A stretch of 64,000 bases of DNA from an uncultured Veillonella sp. (GTDB taxonomy: Bacteria; Bacillota; Negativicutes; Veillonellales; Veillonellaceae): positions 835 through 64,834 of the forward strand of contig CAJZEE010000001.1 in the NCBI GenBank assembly GCA_915066865.1, written 5' to 3'. Each line of letters opens with the position of its first letter. The stretch's first letter is position 1. The translations under genes and the position numbers were made by a program. The notes beneath the pieces were generated by a model. The model had not been told where the DNA came from. It saw nothing but the letters and a program-made list of their open reading frames with translations, and did no database searches. Below, in pieces: positions 3,085-34,468 of this stretch.

Positions 3085-3916
3085 GGTATGCCTCATATAC
3101 AGCTTCAAGCATCATAGTAGTCGTTACAGAGCCTACACCACCAGGCACTGGAGTAATGGCAGATGCAATATCTTTTACCGCTTCATAATCAACATCGCCT
3201 ACCGTCTTACCTTCTAGTTCATTAATGCCTACATCGATAACAACAGCACCTGGCTTAATCATATCTGCTGTAATCATATGAGCACGACCAGCTGCAGCAA
3301 TAACGATATCGCCTCGTTTTACTTGCTCTGCCAAATCAGGAGTTCTAGAATGGCACATTGTAACAGTACCATGTGCACCAAGGGTCATAAGAGCTACTGG
3401 TTTGCCAATAACTTGGCTACGACCGATTACTACCACATGTTTCCCCTCTACAGGAATATCGTAGTGATTCAAAATTGCCATACACGCCTTAGCAGTACAA
3501 GGGGCAAAACCACCTTTGCCTGCAGTTACAAGGCCAATATTATACGTAGTTAAACCATCGATATCTTTTTTAGGATCTAGCATATCGATAAGAGCCTCAG
3601 TATCAATGTGTTTAGGCATCGGCATTAACGGTAAAATTCCATGAACAGCCGCATCATTATTTAATTCTTGCAATGCTGCCACCACTTCATCCTGTGTAGC
3701 CGTTTCAGGTAATTGTTTTAATACAAAGCCATAGCCAAAATTCTTTGCTGTCTTTTCCATAAATGTAGCGTACATATGAGCACCGTGGTCTTCACCAACG
3801 AGTAATACTGCCATAGTAATTACAGAGTCCCCTATTGCTGCAACTTTTTCTTGTAAAATCGCCTTGTGAGCATCTGCTACTGCTTTACCGCGTAATTCGA
3901 TCATGTGTATCTCCAT
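3077..3916 (-). CDS. folD: Bifunctional methylenetetrahydrofolate dehydrogenase/cyclohydrolase FolD
   Basis: 279 aa. The GRSQVIGKPVALM and ITPVPGGVG motifs are characteristic of FolD. Confidence 0.85.
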   Translation of the reverse strand: MEIHMIELRGKAVADAHKAILQEKVAAIGDSVITMAVLLVGEDHGAHMYATFMEKTAKNFGYGFVLKQLPETATQDEVVAALQELNNDAAVHGILPLMPMPKHIDTEALIDMLDPKKDIDGLTTYNIGLVTAGKGGFAPCTAKACMAILNHYDIPVEGKHVVVIGRSQVIGKPVALMTLGAHGTVTMCHSRTPDLAEQVKRGDIVIAAAGRAHMITADMIKPGAVVIDVGINELEGKTVGDVDYEAVKDIASAITPVPGGVGSVTTTMMLEAVYEAYHA

Positions 3917-3939
3917 TCATTCAAACTATCTATAAAATA

Positions 3940-3961
3940 AGGTGCCTCCGGAGAGGCACCT
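3940..3961 (-). terminator. Intrinsic terminator after the penicillin-binding protein gene
   Basis: Hairpin aggtgcctc-cgga-gaggcacct followed on the minus strand by a T-rich tract. Confidence 0.5.
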
Positions 3962-16958: not shown

Positions 16959-17034
16959 TCCTCGATAGCTCAGTCGGTAGAGCAATCGGCTGTTAACCGA
17001 TCGGTCGTAGGTTCGAGTCCTACTCGAGGAGCCA
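16959..17034 (+). tRNA. tRNA-Asn (anticodon GTT)
   Basis: Cloverleaf readable. Acceptor TCCTCGA/TCGAGGA, D-arm GCTCAGTCGGTAGAGC, anticodon loop CTGTTAA, T-arm GGTTCGAGTCC, 3-prime CCA encoded. Confidence 0.9.
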
Positions 17035-17038
17035 TTCT

Positions 17039-17113
17039 GGCCCGTTGGTCAAGCGGTTAAGACACCGCCCTTTCACGGCGGTATCCCGGGTTCGATTCCC
17101 GGACGGGTCACCA
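17039..17113 (+). tRNA. tRNA-Glu (anticodon TTC)
   Basis: GGCCCGTTGGTCAAGCGGTTAAGACACCGCCCTTTCACGGCGG...GGGTTCGATTCCCGGACGGGTCACCA. Anticodon loop CTTTCAC. Confidence 0.9.
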
Positions 17114-17118
17114 CATAT

Positions 17119-17194
<76 letters not shown>

Positions 17195-24796: not shown

Positions 24797-26200
24797 ATGA
24801 ATACTTTTACACGAGCGGCCCTTACCGTTTTAGTGGGCCTCGTCATTTGGTTTTTACCTCATACAGAGGCAATCAAGCCTGAAGGTTGGCATTTATTAGC
24901 TATCTTTACGGCTACTATTGTGGGTTTTATCTTGCGACCTTGGCCAACGGGCATTATGGCGCTTTTTGGTATTGTTGTAGCCGTAGCCACTAATTCCATC
25001 ACTATGGTACAGGCTCTAGGTGGCTATGCAGAGGCGAATGTGTGGCTTATCGTAGCGGCCGTATTCTTTTCACGAGGTATTATTAATTCTGGCCTTGGTA
25101 AGCGTATTGCGTACACCTTGATTCGCTCTTTTGGCACAAGCTCATTAAAGCTTGCCTATGCGTTGGCTTGTACGGACTTGATTATTTCTCCAGCTACACC
25201 ATCTAATACGGCGCGTGGAGGTGGTATTGTATTCCCCATTGTACAAAATATTTCCTTAGCTTTTGGTTCTGAACCTTATGGTAATACGGCCCGCCGCATT
25301 GGGGCGTACTTGATGACGACGGCACATACTATTAACACTATTACTGTGACGATTTTCTTGACCGCATGTAGCGGTAATTTGCTTATTACGTCTTTAGGTG
25401 CTAAACTGTTTGGCTATGATATATCTTGGTGGGAATGGTTTCAAGCAGGTGTCATTCCTGGTGTGATTTGTATGATTTTGATGCCTTGGTTTATCTATAA
25501 AATCTATCCACCAGAAATTAAGGAAACACCAGAGGCTGCTGCAATGGCTCAAAAAGAACTAGAGGCTCTTGGACCTATTACGAAGGCTGAAATTTCTGTT
25601 GCTATTATCTTTGTACTTTGCATTTTGCTTTGGGCGACAGCGATTTGGACTAAGCTTCATCCTACAGCTGTTGCGATGATGGGGGTTCTGGCGTGTGTTG
25701 TGACTGGCTCTCTTAGGTGGGAGGATATCTTGGGTGAACGCACCGGTTGGGATATCCTTATCTGGATGGGCACGCTTGTCGGCATGGCTGGACTTCTTGG
25801 TAAACTTGGTGTAGTAGCTGTGTTTGCAGACTTTATAAGTCAACATTTAGCTGGCTTCGATTGGTTCTGGGCATCCTTTATCATTTCCGCTACCTTTGTG
25901 TATTCTCAGTATTTCTTTGCCAGTGGTACGGCGCGTATTACGGCTCTGTTCTCTGCCTTTGCAGCTATTTTAGTGGCGATGGGGGCTCCTATTCCGTTTA
26001 CAATATTGCTCTTTGGTTTGATGAACAGCCCTGGCTGTACATTGACTCACTATAGTTCAGGTGTAACACCGATTTTCTTCGGTGCTGGTTATGTGCCACA
26101 AGGTACGTGGTGGCGCGTAGGCCTTGCCATTTCTGTGGTAAGTTTCCTCATTCATTTCTGGGGCGGCACTTTTGGCATGTGGCTCTTTGGTATTTTATAA
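24797..26200 (+). CDS. DASS (divalent anion:Na+ symporter / SLC13-like) family di/tricarboxylate transporter
   Basis: 467 aa, polytopic. ISPATPSNTARGGG hairpin-tip motif (SNT) typical of DASS/ArsB-NhaD superfamily carboxylate transporters. Paralog at 59879. Confidence 0.75.
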   Translation: MNTFTRAALTVLVGLVIWFLPHTEAIKPEGWHLLAIFTATIVGFILRPWPTGIMALFGIVVAVATNSITMVQALGGYAEANVWLIVAAVFFSRGIINSGLGKRIAYTLIRSFGTSSLKLAYALACTDLIISPATPSNTARGGGIVFPIVQNISLAFGSEPYGNTARRIGAYLMTTAHTINTITVTIFLTACSGNLLITSLGAKLFGYDISWWEWFQAGVIPGVICMILMPWFIYKIYPPEIKETPEAAAMAQKELEALGPITKAEISVAIIFVLCILLWATAIWTKLHPTAVAMMGVLACVVTGSLRWEDILGERTGWDILIWMGTLVGMAGLLGKLGVVAVFADFISQHLAGFDWFWASFIISATFVYSQYFFASGTARITALFSAFAAILVAMGAPIPFTILLFGLMNSPGCTLTHYSSGVTPIFFGAGYVPQGTWWRVGLAISVVSFLIHFWGGTFGMWLFGIL

Positions 26201-26208
26201 TATATTCA

Positions 26209-26236
26209 ATCCCTCACTACGATGAGGGATTTTTCT
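26209..26236 (+). terminator. Intrinsic terminator after the DASS transporter gene
   Basis: atccctca-ctacga-tgagggat followed by TTTT. Confidence 0.6.
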
Positions 26237-26411
26237 TGTTATATCTATATTTTTATACCTTACTAGGTTTGCTATAGTTTTTGGGTATGGTGAACTTCAT
26301 AAAAAAACTATGATGAATCTATAGAATTTATTGTGAATTATCTTGCGCGGGATAATATAACGTGTTATTATTATTCCGTGATTATTATTACAGAATATTT
26401 TAGGAGGAAAC

Positions 26412-26543
26412 ATGTTAGGTTTAGTCATTAGCTTATTGATTATTGCGCTAGTCGTGATTATTAATGACATTCGAATTATGAACAACAACTTAACACGTTT
26501 TTGTCTTAGAAGTTCCGCGAATGGTTTAATATACAATCAATAA
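26412..26543 (+). CDS. ilv operon leader peptide (branched-chain amino acid rich), attenuation control
   Basis: 43-aa ORF MLGLVISLLIIALVVIINDIRIMNNNLTRFCLRSSANGLIYNQ after RBS aggagg. 16 of the first 17 residues are Leu/Ile/Val/Ala/Gly/Ser, with runs of consecutive Leu/Ile/Val codons. Followed by an intrinsic terminator just upstream of ilvD. Confidence 0.65.
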   Translation: MLGLVISLLIIALVVIINDIRIMNNNLTRFCLRSSANGLIYNQ

Positions 26544-26652
26544 GATTTGACTATATGGTTTGTTTCTTATGTGTATATTTTCCAAGGGATACATAGGATT
26601 ATTTATGTATATAGGAATTCTGTAAACAAAAGGAATATCATTTGTAAACTTT

Positions 26653-26681
26653 TAAGACGATTCATTGGAATCGTCTTTTTT
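26653..26681 (+). terminator. Attenuator terminator of the ilv operon leader
   Basis: Perfect 10-bp stem aagacgattc-attg-gaatcgtctt followed by TTTTTTT, ending about 50 nt before the ilvD RBS. Confidence 0.75.
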
Positions 26682-26734
26682 TATGCGTCGTGAAAGCTGT
26701 CCAAGTGGATGCTTTCAAAAGTGAGGAGATTAAC

Positions 26735-28405
26735 ATGAGTTGTAGAAGTGACAATTTGAAAACAGGCGTAGCACGTGCACCACACAGATCTTTATTAAAA
26801 GCTCTGGGTTTTGTTGATGAAGAAATGGGTAGACCAGTCATCGGTATTGCCAACTCTTTCAATGAAATTATCCCTGGTCACGTAGGCTTGAAAAATATTG
26901 TACAAGCCGTAAAAGACGGTATCCGCAACGCAGGTGGTGTGCCAATCGAGTTCAATACTATCGGTATTTGCGATGGTTTGGCAATGAACCATATCGGCAT
27001 GAAATACTCCTTAGTTACACGTAATATTATTGCAGATTCTATCGAAGCTACTGCTATGGCTACACCATTCGATGCGATGGTATTCATTCCAAATTGCGAT
27101 AAGGTAGTACCAGGCATGTTGATTGCAGCTGCTCGCCTTAATATCCCATCTGTATTCATATCTGGTGGGGCCATGCTAGCTGGTGTACATAAAGGTAAAA
27201 AAATTGGTTTGTCCGACGTATTCGAAGCCGTAGGCAAACATCAAACTGGTGAAATGGATGATGCTGAGTTAGCTGATATCGAAAATACGGCATGTCCTAC
27301 ATGTGGTTCTTGCTCTGGTATGTATACGGCAAATACAATGAACTGCTTAACAGAAGCTCTCGGTATGGGCCTTCCTGGCAATGGTACAATCCCAGCGGTA
27401 TATTCTGAACGTTTGCGTTTAGCTAAGTTAGCTGGTATGCAAGCGGTAGAGGTATTAAAAGCAAACCTTCGCCCTAAAGATATTATGACTCGTGAAGCCT
27501 TTGAAAATGCGGTAGCTCTTGATATGGCTTTGGGTGGCTCCTCTAATACGGCGCTTCATTTACCGGCTATTGCTCACGAAGCAGGTGTACCACTATCCTT
27601 AGACGATTTCGATCGCATCGCCCAAAATACACCTCAATTATCTAAATTATCACCATCTGGTGTATACTTCATCGAAGACTTGTACGCTGCAGGTGGTGTA
27701 TCTGCGGTGTTGAAACGTTTAGCAGAAAATGGTCGCCTTCATACAGATTGCAAAACTGTTGCTCTTAAAACACAAGGTGAAATTGCAGCGGCAGCTCATG
27801 TTGTGGATGAAGATGTTATTCACCCATGGGATAATCCAGTACATGAAACTGGTGGTATCGCGGTTCTTAAAGGCAATCTCGCTGAAGATGGCTCCGTTGT
27901 AAAAGCCGGTGCTGTAGATGCAGATATGCTTGTTCACTCTGGTCCAGCAAAGGTATTCAACAGCGAAGAAGAAGCGGTTGAAGCTATTACAGGCGGTAAA
28001 ATCGTGAAAGGTGATGTTGTAGTTATCCGCTACGAAGGCCCTAAAGGCGGTCCTGGTATGCGTGAAATGTTGACACCAACATCTATGATTGCCGGTATGG
28101 GGCTCGATAAAGATGTAGCATTGTTGACAGATGGACGCTTCTCCGGTGCGACTCGTGGTGCTTCTATCGGTCACGTATCTCCAGAAGCAGCAGCAGGCGG
28201 TACCATTGCCATCGTTGAAGATGGTGATATTATCAACATCGATATTCCAAACGGTAAATTGGAACTAGCTGTATCTGATGATGAAATCACTCGTCGTAAA
28301 GCTGCATTGAAACCGTTCAAATCCAATGTAACTGGATATCTTAAAAAATACGCTCTTCACGTATCCTCTGCTGCACAAGGTGCTATCGAAGTATTTGAAG
28401 ACTAA
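26735..28405 (+). CDS. ilvD: Dihydroxy-acid dehydratase
   Basis: About 556 aa from [21 protein letters not shown] (RBS gaggag). [16 protein letters not shown]e-S cysteine motif. Track ORF starts at an upstream GTG at 26690. Confidence 0.9.
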
Positions 28406-28447
28406 TACTAGACTTTCATTTAATACTAACTAGAGGAGATAGTGTAC

Positions 28448-29671
28448 ATGCACAAATTATATGATTTTATGGAGGCTCGAGAGCGATTAAGCACAATCAC
28501 GGTGAAAACGAAATTGCTTCACAGCGATGTGTTTTCTGACGAGTGCGAAAATGATGTATATATCAAGCCAGAAAACTTGCAAATAACAGGCTCTTTTAAG
28601 GTTCGTGGAGCTTATAATAAAATTGCAAAGCTGACAGAAGAGGAAAAGGCGCGCGGTGTTATCGCTGCGTCTGCTGGTAATCATGCACAAGGCGTGGCCC
28701 TTGCTGCGAAACGCCTTGGCATTAAAGCGACTATTGTTATGCCGAAACACACGCCTCTTATAAAGGTTAATGCAACAAAACAGTACGGCGCAGATGTCGT
28801 ATTACATGGTGAAATCTATGATGAAGCTTGCCAAAAAGCGATGGAACTCCAACAAGAACATGGTTATGTGTTCGTCCATCCCTTCGATGATGAAGATGTA
28901 ATTGAAGGGCAAGGGACAATTGCTCTCGAGGTTCTCGATGAACTTCCTGATGCAGATGTATTGCTTGTTCCTGTTGGGGGCGGTGGTATCGTATCTGGTA
29001 TTGCGGCAGCGGCAAAGTTAAAAAATCCGCGCGTTAAGATTATCGGTGTAGAGCCTGAAGGTGCCGCAAGTGCAATCGCTGCATTAAAGGCTGATCATCC
29101 GGTACCACTCGATGAAGTGGCGACGATTGCAGATGGTACGGCAGTACGTCAAATTGGGGAAACTACATTAGAATATATCAAACAATATGTAGATGAAATT
29201 ATTACCGTTTCTGATTATGAATTGATGGAAGCATTTTTATTACTTGTTGAAAAACATAAGTTAGTAGCAGAAAATTCCGGTATTTTGCCACTCGCTGGTC
29301 TTAAGAAATTAGAGTGCCGCGATAAAAAGGTGGTAGCTATCGTCAGCGGTGGTAATATCGACGTACTTACTATATCGTCCATGATTAATAAAGGTCTCGT
29401 ATTGCGTGGTCGTATCTTTACCTTCTCCGTTAATCTTCCTGATAAACCAGGCCAGTTAGTGGCTGTATCTCAAATGTTAGCCGATGCAGATGCAAATGTT
29501 ATTAAACTTGACCATAATCAGTTCAAAAACCTTGACCGTTTCCATGAAGTGGAATTGCAAGTAACGGTAGAAACAAATGGTGAAGAGCATATCCAACACA
29601 TTATTGATACTTTCAAACATAATGGTTACATTATTAAACGATTAAATTCCAGCGAGATTTTATCTGAATAG
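28448..29671 (+). CDS. ilvA: Threonine dehydratase (threonine ammonia-lyase) with C-terminal ACT-like regulatory domain
   Basis: About 407 aa. PLP-binding Lys in ITGSFKVRGAYNK. SAGNHAQGVALAA and GGGG(I)VSG motifs. Confidence 0.85.
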   Translation: MHKLYDFMEARERLSTITVKTKLLHSDVFSDECENDVYIKPENLQITGSFKVRGAYNKIAKLTEEEKARGVIAASAGNHAQGVALAAKRLGIKATIVMPKHTPLIKVNATKQYGADVVLHGEIYDEACQKAMELQQEHGYVFVHPFDDEDVIEGQGTIALEVLDELPDADVLLVPVGGGGIVSGIAAAAKLKNPRVKIIGVEPEGAASAIAALKADHPVPLDEVATIADGTAVRQIGETTLEYIKQYVDEIITVSDYELMEAFLLLVEKHKLVAENSGILPLAGLKKLECRDKKVVAIVSGGNIDVLTISSMINKGLVLRGRIFTFSVNLPDKPGQLVAVSQMLADADANVIKLDHNQFKNLDRFHEVELQVTVETNGEEHIQHIIDTFKHNGYIIKRLNSSEILSE

Positions 29672-29689
29672 CTGGTTGAAAGGGTTCCT

Positions 29690-31399
29690 ATGAGCGCAGA
29701 AACAATCAATGGGGCACGCATTGTCCTTGAAACTTTGCATCGCCTTGGTGTAACCGATATGTTCGGTTATCCAGGTGGTGCGGTAATTCCAATTTATGAT
29801 GAAATATATAGCTTCCCTGAAATTAAACATTACTTTGTTCGCCATGAACAAGGTGCTGCACATGCAGCAGATGGCTATGCTCGCGTATCTGGTCGCGTAG
29901 GTGTATGTCTTGCTACGTCTGGTCCTGGTGCAACGAATCTTGTAACAGGTATTATGACTGCGTACATGGATTCCGTACCTATGGTGGCCATTACGGGTCA
30001 GGTTGGACGGCCCTTTATCGGTAAGGACTCCTTTCAAGAGGCGGATATCCAAGGTATTACGATGCCTATAACCAAGCATAACTATCTTGTTCAAGATATT
30101 CATGATTTGCCTCGCATCATTAAAGAGGCGTATTTTATTGCTGGTACAGGTCGCCCAGGCCCTGTACTTATTGATATTCCGAAGGATATTCAAACAGAAA
30201 AAATATCCATGGCGGAATACAACAAATTGTACGAAGTACCTATTCATCTTGAAGGCTATGATCCAACCTATAAAGGTCATCAAGGTCAAATCAAAAAAGC
30301 AGCTACTCTCATCAAAAACGCAAAGCGCCCACTTATCATTGCTGGGGCAGGTGTATTGAAGTCTGGCGCTATGGATGAGCTTAAAGAATTAGCTGAAAAG
30401 GCTCAAATCCCGGTGACGAATACATTAGTTGGTCTTGGTGGCTTCCCAGGAGATCACGAATTGGCTCTTGGCATGGTTGGTATGCACGGTTCTGTAGCCG
30501 CTAATAATAGTACAGATGAGGCAGATCTCGTGATTGCTGCAGGGATTCGTTTCCATGACCGCATCACAGGCCATCCAGATTTCTTCTGTAAAAAAGCTAA
30601 AATCATCCATATTGATATCGACCCAGCTGAAATTGATAAGAATGTTACAATCAACGTGCCTATCGTAGGGGATTTAAAACAGGTATTAACGGAGCTTAAT
30701 GCTCTTGTAGAACCTACAACTCATGACGCGTGGCTTGAACAAATCCGAGAATGGCAAGCGGAATACCCTATGGTAATCCCTGAGTCTAAAAATGGTGTAT
30801 TACATGCACAATATGTGTTATCTGAGCTTAATAAAATTGCCAAGGATGATGCCATAATCGTAAGTGATGTAGGTCAACATCAAATGTGGGCGGCTCAATT
30901 CTTAACTCATAAAAAACCTCATACTATCGTTACCTCTGGCGGTGCGGGTACCATGGGGTATGGCTTGCCAGCGGCTATCGGTGCTCAAGTAGGGGCGCCT
31001 AAGAAGCAAGTTATCCTTGTTGTCGGTGATGGCGGGTTCCAAATGACTTGTGAAGAGCTCATGATGGTTCGCCAATATAATTTGCCAATCAAGATTGTTA
31101 TTATTAACAACGGCTATCTTGGTATGGTTCGTCAATGGCAAGAAATCTTCAATGATAGACGCTACTCCTATGTGGACTTAGAAGTGAGTCCGAACTTCGT
31201 GAAACTCGCAGATGCATTTGACTTGAAAGCAGCGCGTCTAGATAATGTTGAAACTTTCAACAAAGAATTTAAATCATACATTACATCGGATGAAAGCATT
31301 GTCTTGGATTGTCGCGTTGAACGAGAGGATAATGTATTACCAATGATTCCAGCAGGCGGCACGATAAGCGGTATGATGGGGAAGAAAGGGGTGCTATAA
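29690..31399 (+). CDS. ilvB: Acetolactate synthase large (catalytic) subunit
   Basis: 569 aa. ThDP-binding GDGGFQM motif. FAD and ThDP enzyme family signatures. Confidence 0.9.
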   Translation: MSAETINGARIVLETLHRLGVTDMFGYPGGAVIPIYDEIYSFPEIKHYFVRHEQGAAHAADGYARVSGRVGVCLATSGPGATNLVTGIMTAYMDSVPMVAITGQVGRPFIGKDSFQEADIQGITMPITKHNYLVQDIHDLPRIIKEAYFIAGTGRPGPVLIDIPKDIQTEKISMAEYNKLYEVPIHLEGYDPTYKGHQGQIKKAATLIKNAKRPLIIAGAGVLKSGAMDELKELAEKAQIPVTNTLVGLGGFPGDHELALGMVGMHGSVAANNSTDEADLVIAAGIRFHDRITGHPDFFCKKAKIIHIDIDPAEIDKNVTINVPIVGDLKQVLTELNALVEPTTHDAWLEQIREWQAEYPMVIPESKNGVLHAQYVLSELNKIAKDDAIIVSDVGQHQMWAAQFLTHKKPHTIVTSGGAGTMGYGLPAAIGAQVGAPKKQVILVVGDGGFQMTCEELMMVRQYNLPIKIVIINNGYLGMVRQWQEIFNDRRYSYVDLEVSPNFVKLADAFDLKAARLDNVETFNKEFKSYITSDESIVLDCRVEREDNVLPMIPAGGTISGMMGKKGVL

Positions 31400-31887
31400 T
31401 GGCGAAAGAACATCAAGTCTTAATCATTGCAAAAAATGCACCAGGTATTGGTACACGTATTTTGGCACTCTTTAACCGTCGTGGCTTTAACGTTACAAAA
31501 ATGACATCTGGTATTACAAATCAGCCAGGTTATGCACGTATTACTATTACTGTAGAGGCCGATGACCGAATTCTCGATCAAGTGCAAAAACAAATCTACA
31601 AGCTTATCGATGTTGTTAAGGTTAAAGTGTTTGAAGATCATGATGTGGTATGCCGTGAGTTAATGCTTATCAAGGTAAAAGCATCTGCTTCCACAAGATC
31701 ACAAATTGTACAGATTGCCGATGTATATCGTGGTAATGTGTTAGATATTTCTCCTACATCTATGATAATTGAAGTCATTGGCAGTGTAGAAAAATTACGT
31801 GGCTTCATTCAAATTATGGAAACCTATGGTATTCTTGAAATTGCCAAAACAGGTATCACCGCTATGAGTCGCGGAGAAAAAATGTAG
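31399..31887 (+). CDS. ilvN: Acetolactate synthase small (regulatory) subunit
   Basis: 162 aa. N-terminal ACT domain (ILALFNRRGFNV). Start overlaps the ilvB stop. Confidence 0.85.
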   Translation: MAKEHQVLIIAKNAPGIGTRILALFNRRGFNVTKMTSGITNQPGYARITITVEADDRILDQVQKQIYKLIDVVKVKVFEDHDVVCRELMLIKVKASASTRSQIVQIADVYRGNVLDISPTSMIIEVIGSVEKLRGFIQIMETYGILEIAKTGITAMSRGEKM

Positions 31888-31898
31888 GAGCTGATAAT

Positions 31899-32684
31899 GT
31901 GGGGCGTGAATTACTCCATTATGAAAATGTCTGCTTTCGCCGTGATGGTAGACCTATTTTAGATAATGTAAATTGGCATATAGAGGATGGTGAACATTGG
32001 GCTTTATTAGGTCTTAATGGGGCTGGTAAATCAACGCTACTCAGCATGATACCTGCTTATCAAATTCCCACAACGGGTACTTTGCGTGTGTTTGGTAAGG
32101 AATTTGGTAAATATGCGTGGCCTAAAATCAAGGCTAGACTAGGATTTGTTAGCTCTGCGCTTGGACAATTTCAGTCAACCTTGGATAAACAAGTCGTTGA
32201 AGATATTGTTATTTCTGGTGCATTTAGTAGCATTGGTATATACCAAGAGGTAACACCTGAGGTGCGCCAACGAGGTATGCAATTATTATCTGAATTCGGA
32301 CTAGACTATTTGGAAGGTCATCGTTTTCGCACCTTGTCTGCTGGCGAACAGCGCCGGGTATTGTTAGCGAGGTCTATTATGGCAAATCCAGAATTATTGA
32401 TTTTGGATGAGCCTTGCTCTGGTTTGGACTTACCAGCGAGGGAGCAGTTTTTACGCACCGTATCCACTTTGGTAGCTGAGCAGCAGACACCGATTATCTA
32501 TGTGTCACATCAAATTGAAGAGATACTACCGTTTATTACTCATGTAGCTATCTTGCGTGAGGGCAAGATGATTCATGCAGGTCCTAAGCACAAGGTACTA
32601 ACTGATGATATTTTATCTGATGTCTTTGGACTTTCCGTACAAGTTGTATGGAAAGATGATCGTCCATGGGTGATGGTTCGGTAG
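31899..32684 (+). CDS. ABC transporter ATP-binding protein (single NBD, no adjacent permease) embedded in the ilv operon
   Basis: 261 aa, GTG start after RBS aggag. Walker A GLNGAGKST, signature LSAGEQRR, Walker B LLILDEP. Confidence 0.7.
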   Translation: MGRELLHYENVCFRRDGRPILDNVNWHIEDGEHWALLGLNGAGKSTLLSMIPAYQIPTTGTLRVFGKEFGKYAWPKIKARLGFVSSALGQFQSTLDKQVVEDIVISGAFSSIGIYQEVTPEVRQRGMQLLSEFGLDYLEGHRFRTLSAGEQRRVLLARSIMANPELLILDEPCSGLDLPAREQFLRTVSTLVAEQQTPIIYVSHQIEEILPFITHVAILREGKMIHAGPKHKVLTDDILSDVFGLSVQVVWKDDRPWVMVR

Positions 32685-32768
32685 TTATCAAATTTTTTTA
32701 TCAGAGGCTTAAAACTTGGCTTACTGATACTAAATTAATGTACGCCACATCTTGCAAAAATTTGTTAG

Positions 32769-33833
<1,065 letters not shown>

Positions 33834-33878
33834 GAGTATTACTTAGGTAATCTTTTGTGAGATTATATGCTTATTAAA

Positions 33879-33908
33879 AGCGACCCCGTAAGGGGTCGCT
33901 ATTTTTTA
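33879..33908 (+). terminator. Intrinsic terminator after ilvC
   Basis: agcgacccc-gtaa-ggggtcgct followed by ATTTTTT. Confidence 0.8.
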
Positions 33909-34006
33909 TCTTTTCTTACATTATTTTGGGCCATCTTGACGATTACATCGAAAATATTGGAATCAAATATGGTATAATAAAAAGTAATATTTGAAAGGAG
34001 TGTGGC

Positions 34007-34468
34007 ATGGATTTTTACACATTAGCCTATGTTGAAAGTCAGGCTGTAATAGGTCAAACTTGGGGCTTTATTATAATTGTAGCTGTTCTATTAGCATTGC
34101 TCATTTTGGGAGTACAAGTATTGCGAAATGGTTTTACTAGTCGCTATCGTGACTTGATGATTATATTGTCTTTAATCGTAGTGTTCTTCTTAGGGCTTGA
34201 ATACCAAGAGTATAATCGAATGAAAACCTATTCTGAGGACTCCTCTCGTATGGCTCAATTTTTACATTCTTTTAGTTCAGATCGTTCCGTACCGAGTGAC
34301 CAATTGGCGGTTAACTCCTTAAAGATTCGTAATGGTATGATTTTAAAAGTAAGTGACGCTTACTATGAGGTTCAATTTAATCCAGAATTTTCAACCTATA
34401 CGATTACACGTGTTTATAAGGTAAGCCCTATAGATCGAATTCACGATAAAGAGGATGCATTACAATAA
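34007..34468 (+). CDS. DUF3290 family membrane protein
   Basis: 153 aa, two N-terminal TM helices. Typically paired with a DUF421 (YetF-type) gene, which follows here. Confidence 0.55.
   Translation: MDFYTLAYVESQAVIGQTWGFIIIVAVLLALLILGVQVLRNGFTSRYRDLMIILSLIVVFFLGLEYQEYNRMKTYSEDSSRMAQFLHSFSSDRSVPSDQLAVNSLKIRNGMILKVSDAYYEVQFNPEFSTYTITRVYKVSPIDRIHDKEDALQ

Follow-up and report, generated by a model that had tools for sequence, protein, structure and literature searches.

The stretch of DNA analysed here, called the window throughout, comprises 64,000 nucleotides (nt) from an uncultured Veillonella sp. (contig CAJZEE010000001.1 of assembly GCA_915066865.1), which matches V. parvula; its IlvD protein is 99% identical to the IlvD of V. 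parvula genomes. Its plus strand carries the branched-chain amino acid (BCAA) operon ilvD-ilvA-ilvB-ilvN-(ABC-type ATPase)-ilvC (26735 to 33833; NCBIfam and Pfam assignments), and this analysis concerns the 534-nt intergenic region in front of that operon, between the end of a DASS-family transporter gene at 26200 and the start of ilvD at 26735. An earlier note, made from the sequence alone, had drawn attention to a small open reading frame (ORF) and a terminator in this region and had proposed that they form a leader-peptide transcription attenuator. The region was compared to a set of 80 ilvD loci, chosen as the best matches among GTDB species representatives, and to the loci of V. magna and V. 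caviae, which came from an IlvD protein search (82 loci in total).

The leader ORF

The leader ORF is located on the plus strand at 26412 to 26543 and consists of 43 codons and a stop codon (translation MLGLVISLLIIALVVIINDIRIMNNNLTRFCLRSSANGLIYNQ). Its Shine-Dalgarno sequence, AGGAGG, lies at 26402 to 26407, 4 nt 5' of the ATG; both the length of the ORF and the strong ribosome-binding sequence are as the earlier note described them. The codons that follow the ATG (26415 to 26477, plus strand) form a regulatory run of leucine, isoleucine, and valine (L/I/V) codons: 13 of the residues encoded by codons 2-17, and 15 of those encoded by codons 2-22, are L/I/V. The composition that had been given for residues 2-17 (six Leu, six Ile, four Val, and one Ala) was miscounted; the residues are five Leu, five Ile, three Val, one Ala, one Gly, and one Ser. 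With 13 of 16 L/I/V residues the leader ORF is the top outlier among the 920 ORFs of 16-70 amino acids (aa) found in the six frames of the window, the runner-up having 11, and the 16-residue stretches of the 129 longer ORFs in the window reach a maximum of 12. Because it is an outlier with respect to both the small and the longer ORFs, the leader ORF is not explained by chance in an AT-rich genome.

Upstream of the ORF, a putative promoter can tentatively be read from the plus strand (26343 to 26371): a -35 element TTGCGC at 26343 to 26348, a spacer of 17 nt, and an extended -10 element TGtTATTAT at 26363 to 26371, with a predicted transcription start near 26378. The promoter was not reported by a consensus scanner because its -35 element matches at only three of six positions; the arrangement TTGCR...TGtTAWKAT is retained in the V. 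parvula-group and V. absiana loci (alignment A3). Three other candidate features in this part of the region were rejected. The 9-nt complementarity between AACGTGTTA in the putative promoter (26360 to 26368) and TAACACGTT (26491 to 26499) is not conserved in V. absiana and is considered a coincidence. A minus-strand ORF of 79 aa (26297 to 26536) has a TTG start, spans the promoter, and is conserved neither in length nor in frame in other lineages; we regard it as a shadow ORF. A second small ORF between the leader and the terminator (26569 to 26625, MCIFSKGYIGLFMYIGIL) has no Shine-Dalgarno sequence, occurs in the V. parvula group only, and is probably untranslated.

The earlier note had suggested a comparison of the small ORF across related species, and this comparison found it conserved across the leader-bearing Veillonella lineages sampled and in Fusobacteriota. 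A leader ORF with a Shine-Dalgarno sequence, an L/I/V run, and a terminator 5' of ilvD is present in every leader-bearing Veillonella lineage sampled, namely the V. parvula/dispar group, V. absiana, V. magna, V. caviae, V. intestinalis-like species, and the DNF00869 group, and the leader was also found in a metagenome-assembled genome (MAG) of the Veillonellaceae. Outside the phylum, leaders 5' of ilvD were detected in Fusobacterium nucleatum-like genomes, in Leptotrichia or Leptotrichiaceae, and in Sebaldella. The equivalent ORFs in Veillonella and Fusobacteriota have 30-51 codons. Every leader of the other lineages has a Shine-Dalgarno sequence of the GGAG/AGGA type 5' of its ATG, and the L/I/V content of these leaders is 12-14 of 16 residues. 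The leader peptides cannot be aligned as proteins, and it is their composition that is kept (examples are MVLLAILVLVLFLVVNVIR..., MLLFILIIILIIFIIT..., and MSLTLILVILLLIIIIQ...). A leader filter that required an ATG, a Shine-Dalgarno sequence, at least 12 of 16 L/I/V residues, and a length of at most 70 aa was run over both strands of 766 kb (the window and the 82 loci). It matched solely coding-strand ORFs 5' of ilvD or, in three Fusobacteriaceae loci, 5' of ilvE-ilvD, and it gave no match elsewhere in these 766 kb.

The loci with an ilvE-ilvD arrangement are those of Psychrilyobacter and other Fusobacteriaceae, in which an Ile-rich leader (e.g., MRLLINVSIIVSMLIIINIIINIINNISCDLYSTNSTVFLKL) and then a terminator precede the two genes (L044 2807-2935, L045 2786-2895, L046 2332-2460). 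In these leaders a segment within the ORF, ATTAGTTGT, mimics the 3' arm of the terminator; the ilvE-ilvD leader thus has the same design in an independent version. Two loci of uncultured Veillonella (L019 and L020, around 3880-3950), whose IlvD sequences are 84-85% identical, have a hairpin that resembles the attenuator terminator (AGGACGATTCCTAGGAATCGTCCTTTTC) 5' of ilvD; no L/I/V leader ORF was found 5' of ilvD in these two loci, and the U-tract is weak. This hairpin may be a degenerate or lost attenuator.

The substitutions within the V. parvula/dispar group are distributed unevenly along the ORF. Codons 1-17 have five synonymous changes and one non-synonymous change, whereas codons 18-44 have one synonymous and six non-synonymous changes. 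Because of this split, we conclude that selection acts on codon identity in the regulatory L/I/V run only. This pattern is what would be predicted for a regulatory leader, and not for a riboswitch aptamer or a functional protein.

The ORF could instead encode a functional small hydrophobic membrane peptide, either a type I toxin-like peptide or a micropeptide, with its own terminator and with ilvD transcribed separately. In V. parvula DSM 2008 the ORF is annotated as a gene, but only as the hypothetical protein Vpar_1442, and in a public look-up ORFs of the Vpar_1442 type were called as genes on at least 1000 contigs. The first 17-20 residues are candidates for a transmembrane helix, and the N-terminal part of the peptide is under purifying selection. 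However, the hydrophobic run is nearly pure L/I/V and richer in these residues than any stretch of the long ORFs in the window, including the genes for membrane proteins. The C-terminal half is free to change at the protein level (the six non-synonymous changes and one synonymous change mentioned above), and what is conserved there are the RNA pairing strands; the length of the peptide varies from 30 to 51 aa, with only the N-terminal composition conserved. Furthermore, the ORF is always located in cis, on the same strand and immediately 5' of an ilv operon in two phyla, part of the ORF is complementary to the 5' arm of the terminator, and the terminator is separated from ilvD by only about 50 nt that contain no promoter-like site. 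We therefore consider a membrane peptide highly improbable, and hypothetical proteins of the Vpar_1442 type would be better labelled as ilv operon leader peptides.

Terminator, antiterminator, and the proposed switch

The intrinsic terminator (regions 3:4; 26654 to 26682, plus strand) has a perfect stem of 10 base pairs (bp) between 26654-26663 and 26668-26677, with the sequence AAGACGATTC-ATTG-GAATCGTCTT and ATTG as the loop, and a run of seven Ts at 26676 to 26682. The stem begins 111 nt after the stop codon of the leader; the distance of about 110 nt, the perfect stem, and the T-run had all been correctly noted. The T-run was placed about 50 nt 5' of the ilvD ribosome-binding site, and here the distance has to be revised to about 40 nt (ribosome-binding site GAGGAG at 26723 to 26728, ilvD start codon at 26735 to 26737, plus strand). 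In an alignment of 18 sequences, 97% of the cells of the terminator stem are paired, and five of its ten pairs are changed on both sides.

For 17 diverse loci, the whole leader was searched for the best duplex partner of the 5' side of the terminator, taken as its 5' arm together with the 14 nt upstream of it. In 16 of the 17 loci the best partner is located inside the leader ORF, at about codons 23-41 and just 3' of the L/I/V run, and in most of the 17 the energy of the duplex is better than that of all, or nearly all, of 200 shuffles. In the window, the antiterminator pairs 26501-26514 (TTGTCTTAGAAGTT, codons 30-35) with 26647-26660 (AACTTTTAAGACGA). All 14 positions are paired, the helix covers 7 nt at the start of the terminator 5' arm, and the free energy (dG) of the duplex, -17.6 kcal/mol, is reached by none of 200 shuffles. 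The strands of this helix belong to two of the elements that we delimit on the plus strand: region 2 (26478 to 26522), in which 26517-26522 extends the antiterminator 5' strand, and region 3 (26642 to 26660), which provides the 3' strand. The variable spacer between them (26523 to 26641) is conserved in close relatives only.

The antiterminator helix is 79% paired in the 18-sequence alignment A2, compared to 36-51% when the partner is slid by one to three columns, and 8 of its 15 pairs are changed on both sides; A2 was anchored on the predicted duplex, and its pair counts lean towards the model. Because of this anchoring, RNAalifold was run on a plain alignment: for six Veillonella leaders aligned with MAFFT without anchoring and cut before the terminator 3' arm, the same helix of 13 bp was recovered. 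Regions 2, 3, and 4 also covary three ways. Leaders of the V. parvula type have GUC/GAC/GUC, whereas the leaders of the DNF00869 group and of Fusobacteriota have GCC/GGC/GCC, so that the covarying position is U:A:U in the former and C:G:C in the latter. Three-way covariation is expected because one strand serves two mutually exclusive helices. V. magna has a further, independent exchange of U:A to C:G in the antiterminator.

A third helix competes with the antiterminator. Region 1 (26392 to 26429, plus strand), which contains the Shine-Dalgarno sequence, the AUG, and the first six codons of the leader, is the 5' strand of an anti-antiterminator that pairs with 26478-26516 of region 2. This 1:2 helix (dG -22.5 kcal/mol; 4 of 200 shuffles are as good) overlaps the antiterminator strand and is present in the minimum free energy structure of the free RNA. 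Equivalent helices, some of them in a shifted register, are strong in the other Veillonella lineages and in one Fusobacterium (L051). In alignment A3, regions 1-4 appear as conserved blocks and the spacer is little conserved; the distance between regions 2 and 3 is 130 nt in the window and is estimated at roughly 64-160 nt in other lineages. The ORF, its codon bias, the three alternative helices, and the conservation and covariation of these helices are direct observations.

The element could alternatively be a T-box or another tRNA-sensing leader, or a protein-mediated (TRAP- or CodY-like) attenuator, that overlaps an ORF by chance. T-boxes do control ilvD in other Firmicutes. In the same Rfam scan, T-boxes (RF00230) were found in two ilvD loci of Syntrophomonadaceae, L061 (3563-3801, 114 bits), where the T-box is directly 5' of ilvD, and L058 (2459-2710, 100 bits), which indicates that related ilvD genes in other Firmicutes use a different RNA switch. 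These two loci also serve as a positive control and make the negative result meaningful: neither a T-box nor any other Rfam family matched the region from 26200 to 26735 at E<=10, and at the gathering score the whole window, like the loci of Veillonella and Fusobacteria, was free of T-boxes. That no T-box was visible by eye in this region is thus corroborated, and we regard a T-box as excluded. Repeated protein-binding triplets or palindromes were not seen, and these explanations leave the features of the ORF unexplained; of the alternatives considered in this analysis, we give them the least credence.

In our assessment, the element is in all probability a classical ribosome-mediated (leader-peptide) transcription attenuator of ilvD-ilvA-ilvB-ilvN-ABC-ilvC, which would sense the supply of charged Leu-, Ile-, and Val-tRNA. 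The reading put forward in the earlier note is thereby supported: the region combines a translatable ORF, L/I/V codons, a terminator, a covarying antiterminator, and an anti-antiterminator, and the arrangement is conserved across species and phyla. Transcription would start near 26378, and a ribosome would load at the AGGAGG/AUG that opens the 43-codon leader. With BCAAs in ample supply, this ribosome would pass the L/I/V codons, cross region 2, and depart at the stop codon. Region 1 (26392 to 26429) would then re-pair with region 2 (26478 to 26516), region 3 would be left free, the 3:4 hairpin (26654 to 26677 and the U-run) would form, and RNA polymerase would terminate some 50 nt short of ilvD. 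A shortage of any one of the three amino acids would stall the ribosome within codons 2-22 and block the 1:2 helix, and region 2 (26501 to 26514) would pair with region 3 (26647 to 26660) as soon as the latter is made. With the 5' arm of the terminator sequestered, transcription would read into ilvD. The L/I/V codons (26415 to 26477) occupy the 3' part of region 1 and the loop of the 1:2 helix, and a ribosome would therefore prevent 1:2 pairing wherever in the run it stalls. Since all three amino acids are present in the leader, control would be multivalent, as in ilvGMEDA of E. coli.

RNA folding had been proposed as a check for mutually exclusive structures, and such structures were found, and found to be conserved, in the antiterminator (26501-26514 / 26647-26660) and the terminator. 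We folded the full leader at equilibrium with a 30-nt ribosome mask placed at each codon, and then the nascent RNA truncated before the terminator 3' arm. The free full-length RNA adopts the 1:2 helix together with the terminator (-71.6 kcal/mol), and it adopts the antiterminator when this is forced (-66.0 kcal/mol). RNA that ends at 26640 forms the 1:2 helix, and RNA that ends just before the terminator 3' arm forms the 2:3 helix, except with a ribosome on codons 27-36.

Several results count against the attenuator. In the full-length equilibrium folds the terminator wins at nearly every position of the ribosome, and the nascent RNA forms the 2:3 helix even without a stalled ribosome. The switch is not reproduced at equilibrium, and the decision must therefore be kinetic; because the stable local terminator hairpin wins almost everywhere, equilibrium folding is unable to test a kinetic switch. 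The leaders of Fusobacterium and Leptotrichia, which are very AT-rich, have a weak 1:2 helix, the blocks AUGUUAG and CUUAACA are invariant and do not covary, and the lean of the A2 pair counts has been mentioned above. The 130-nt spacer is far longer than in textbook attenuators and is not accounted for by the model. It could act as a timing delay that lets a ribosome lagging behind RNA polymerase still decide the outcome; as an alternative to a timing delay, the enclosed domain that the spacer forms could provide a second input. Leader translation, a terminated transcript of about 305 nt, the response to amino acids, and the timing are what we infer from the sequence, and the transcription start is a predicted one.

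The ilv operon in Veillonella and Fusobacteriota

The order of genes given in the earlier note, ilvD-ilvA-ilvB-ilvN-ilvC, is correct as far as these five genes are concerned; however, it is incomplete, because a gene for a stand-alone ABC-type ATPase between ilvN and ilvC (31899 to 32684) was overlooked. This gene is assigned by Pfam ABC_tran only, and its best NCBIfam match, which is ModF-like, is below the cut-off. Homologues with 54-55% identity are located 3' of ilvN in the Veillonellaceae MAG (L034), where ilvC is the next gene, and in Fusobacterium nucleatum (L026). From these homologues the ATPase appears to be a conserved member of the ilv operon. The order ilvD-ilvA-ilvB-ilvN, followed by the ABC ATPase and ilvC where the sequence reaches that far, is common to Veillonella, the Veillonellaceae MAG, and Fusobacteriota.

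The IlvD proteins of Fusobacterium, Leptotrichia, and Sebaldella are 77-81% identical to that of V. parvula, and those of Psychrilyobacter and its relatives 65-66% (L025-L031, L035, L044-L046, L051). Fusobacterial IlvD sequences (79-81%) are as near to V. parvula IlvD as are the IlvD sequences of other Veillonella species. Among the at least 120 matches listed by the IlvD protein search, all are at least 80% identical to the query, and all those with a named source are from Veillonella. The only named Negativicutes among the best 80 loci are Veillonella and the one Veillonellaceae MAG, and the pattern-based search may be biased. The sample of named Negativicutes outside Veillonella consists of this MAG; Selenomonadales, Acidaminococcales, Megasphaera, and Dialister are not part of it.

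Taken together, the closeness of the IlvD sequences, the same gene order, and the same type of leader suggest horizontal transfer of the operon with its attenuator. That Fusobacteriota and Veillonella have in common a distinct attenuator lineage, which moved between the phyla with the ilvD-ilvA-ilvB-ilvN-ABC-ilvC cassette, is a tentative proposal that we hold to be possible, though rather doubtful. The near-identical operon and regulation in two phyla would present a biosynthetic operon apparently travelling with its cis-regulatory switch. With the attenuator, BCAA leader-peptide attenuation would be extended to two groups of abundant oral and gut anaerobes, the Negativicutes and the Fusobacteriota.

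The neighbourhood of the operon differs between Veillonella species. In V. magna and V. caviae (L081 1-2266, L082 1-2387), the leader and the ilv operon are located directly 3' of a gene for a BrnQ-type branched-chain amino acid transporter and a gene for an amino-acid permease. In V. parvula, unlike in these two species, the upstream neighbour is the DASS symporter; in the window, the terminator of the DASS-family transporter gene is at 26208-26231. A strong hairpin after ilvC (AAAAGCGACCCCGTAAGGGGTCGCT, within 33826-34074 of the window) is flanked by A- and T-runs and resembles a bidirectional terminator. Sub-threshold Rfam matches to Phe_leader, L20_leader, and MicX at 33826-34074 sit on this hairpin and are considered chance matches. 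Three tRNA genes are clustered on the plus strand at 16959-17191 of the window.

Comparison with known systems

A motif 5' of ilvD in Veillonella has been published before, which the earlier note had missed. Brewer et al. 2021 (PMC8632094) describe an ilvD motif (WRC-18-2) from V. parvula DSM 2008 (genome 18) as a weak riboswitch candidate with 73 representatives, all from Veillonella. It has in common with the element studied here the genus, the gene association, the type of source genome, the long stems, and a terminator between the motif and ilvD. The two differ in that the published motif is restricted to Veillonella and no upstream ORF (uORF) is noted for it, whereas the element is read here as a leader-peptide attenuator that is also present in Fusobacteriota. 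The ilvD motif is almost certainly the same intergenic element, the exact overlap being deduced from the genus, the gene, the genome, and the description. The motif is not detectable through Rfam in 26200 to 26735.

This publication brings in the explanation that the RNA is a metabolite- or alarmone-binding riboswitch, which would bind a compound of the BCAA pathway or ppGpp and control the terminator directly, the ORF being incidental. The 73 Veillonella representatives 5' of ilvD, some with a terminator before the gene, are compatible with this, as are the strong structure of the leader RNA (z = -3.0) and the 120-nt domain enclosed by the 2:3 helix, which the attenuator model does not account for. 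However, the enclosed spacer is not conserved past close relatives, and what is conserved across lineages is the Shine-Dalgarno sequence, the ATG, the reading frame, and the L/I/V composition, without an aptamer-like core. The changes in the L/I/V run are synonymous, which suggests that the constraint comes from translation. No ppGpp/ykkC or other riboswitch model matched (Rfam; the region at E<=10, the window at the gathering score). The authors themselves remarked on the uncharacteristically long stems and the little covariation of the motif. The same laboratory later re-read three similar motifs, ilvB-II and ilvB-OMG of Corynebacterium and the Leptospira ilvB motif, which had first been non-coding RNA or riboswitch candidates, as attenuators with BCAA-rich uORFs (Narunsky et al. 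2023, PMC10272879), a paper that makes no mention of the ilvD motif. The Corynebacterium and Leptospira motifs belong to ilvB genes and to other lineages and have no sequence relation to the Veillonella element. A riboswitch is, in our judgement, very unlikely. Leader-peptide attenuation provides a testable mechanism for this orphan weak riboswitch candidate, and would spare a search for a ligand.

BCAA leader-peptide attenuators 5' of ilvD are known from other Firmicutes. The attenuator Rli60 of Listeria monocytogenes has a 13-aa leader and was validated by mutants (PMC5864092), the one of S. aureus has a 26-aa leader and is experimentally supported (PMC5794164), and others have been predicted in Lactococcus and Streptococcus. 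The earlier note had held that BCAA operons of Firmicutes are usually controlled by T-boxes and that a peptide attenuator would be unusual; the use of T-boxes in other Firmicutes is confirmed, but with the precedents in Listeria and S. aureus the second part does not stand. Like the Veillonella element, these two attenuators are located directly 5' of ilvD and combine an ORF with BCAA codons, a terminator, and an antiterminator. They differ from it in their much shorter leaders with few regulatory codons, compared to a run of 13-15 in Veillonella, in that they act together with CodY, and in the lack of any sequence similarity. A search of the searchable literature, which did not extend to surveys in subscription journals, returned no described leader-peptide attenuator in Veillonella, other Negativicutes, or Fusobacteriota.

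The ilvGMEDA operon of E. coli and Salmonella, with its leader ilvL, also shares features with the operon of the window. All three BCAAs abound in its leader peptide (the E. coli IlvL sequence is MTALLRVISLVVISVVVIIIPPCGAALGRGKA, the V. parvula leader begins MLGLVISLLIIALVVII...), and the E. coli and V. parvula peptides are strikingly alike in composition. In both operons a terminator precedes the first structural gene, there are alternative 1:2, 2:3, and 3:4 pairings, and ilvD and ilvA are included. The two leaders have no homology in sequence or structure, and they differ in length, with 43 codons in Veillonella and 32 in E. coli. Rfam family RF02744 matches the E. coli ilvL leader region; none of the enterobacterial leader families in Rfam (Leu_leader, Thr_leader, His_leader, Trp_leader, Phe_leader, RF02744) matched 26200 to 26735 at E<=10. 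The mechanism itself is textbook knowledge and the conceptual surprise is modest; the element is also of value because it allows a published orphan motif to be reinterpreted. The Veillonella element works like the enterobacterial ilvL, ivbL, and leuL attenuators, Rli60, and the S. aureus attenuator, and it is not homologous to the Rfam leader families. It departs from the enterobacterial paradigm in three respects: the Shine-Dalgarno sequence and AUG of the leader itself are part of region 1, the 5' strand of the antiterminator is inside the ORF, and a spacer of 64-160 nt (about 130 nt between regions 2 and 3 in the window) precedes the terminator. A further particular feature is the long regulatory run.

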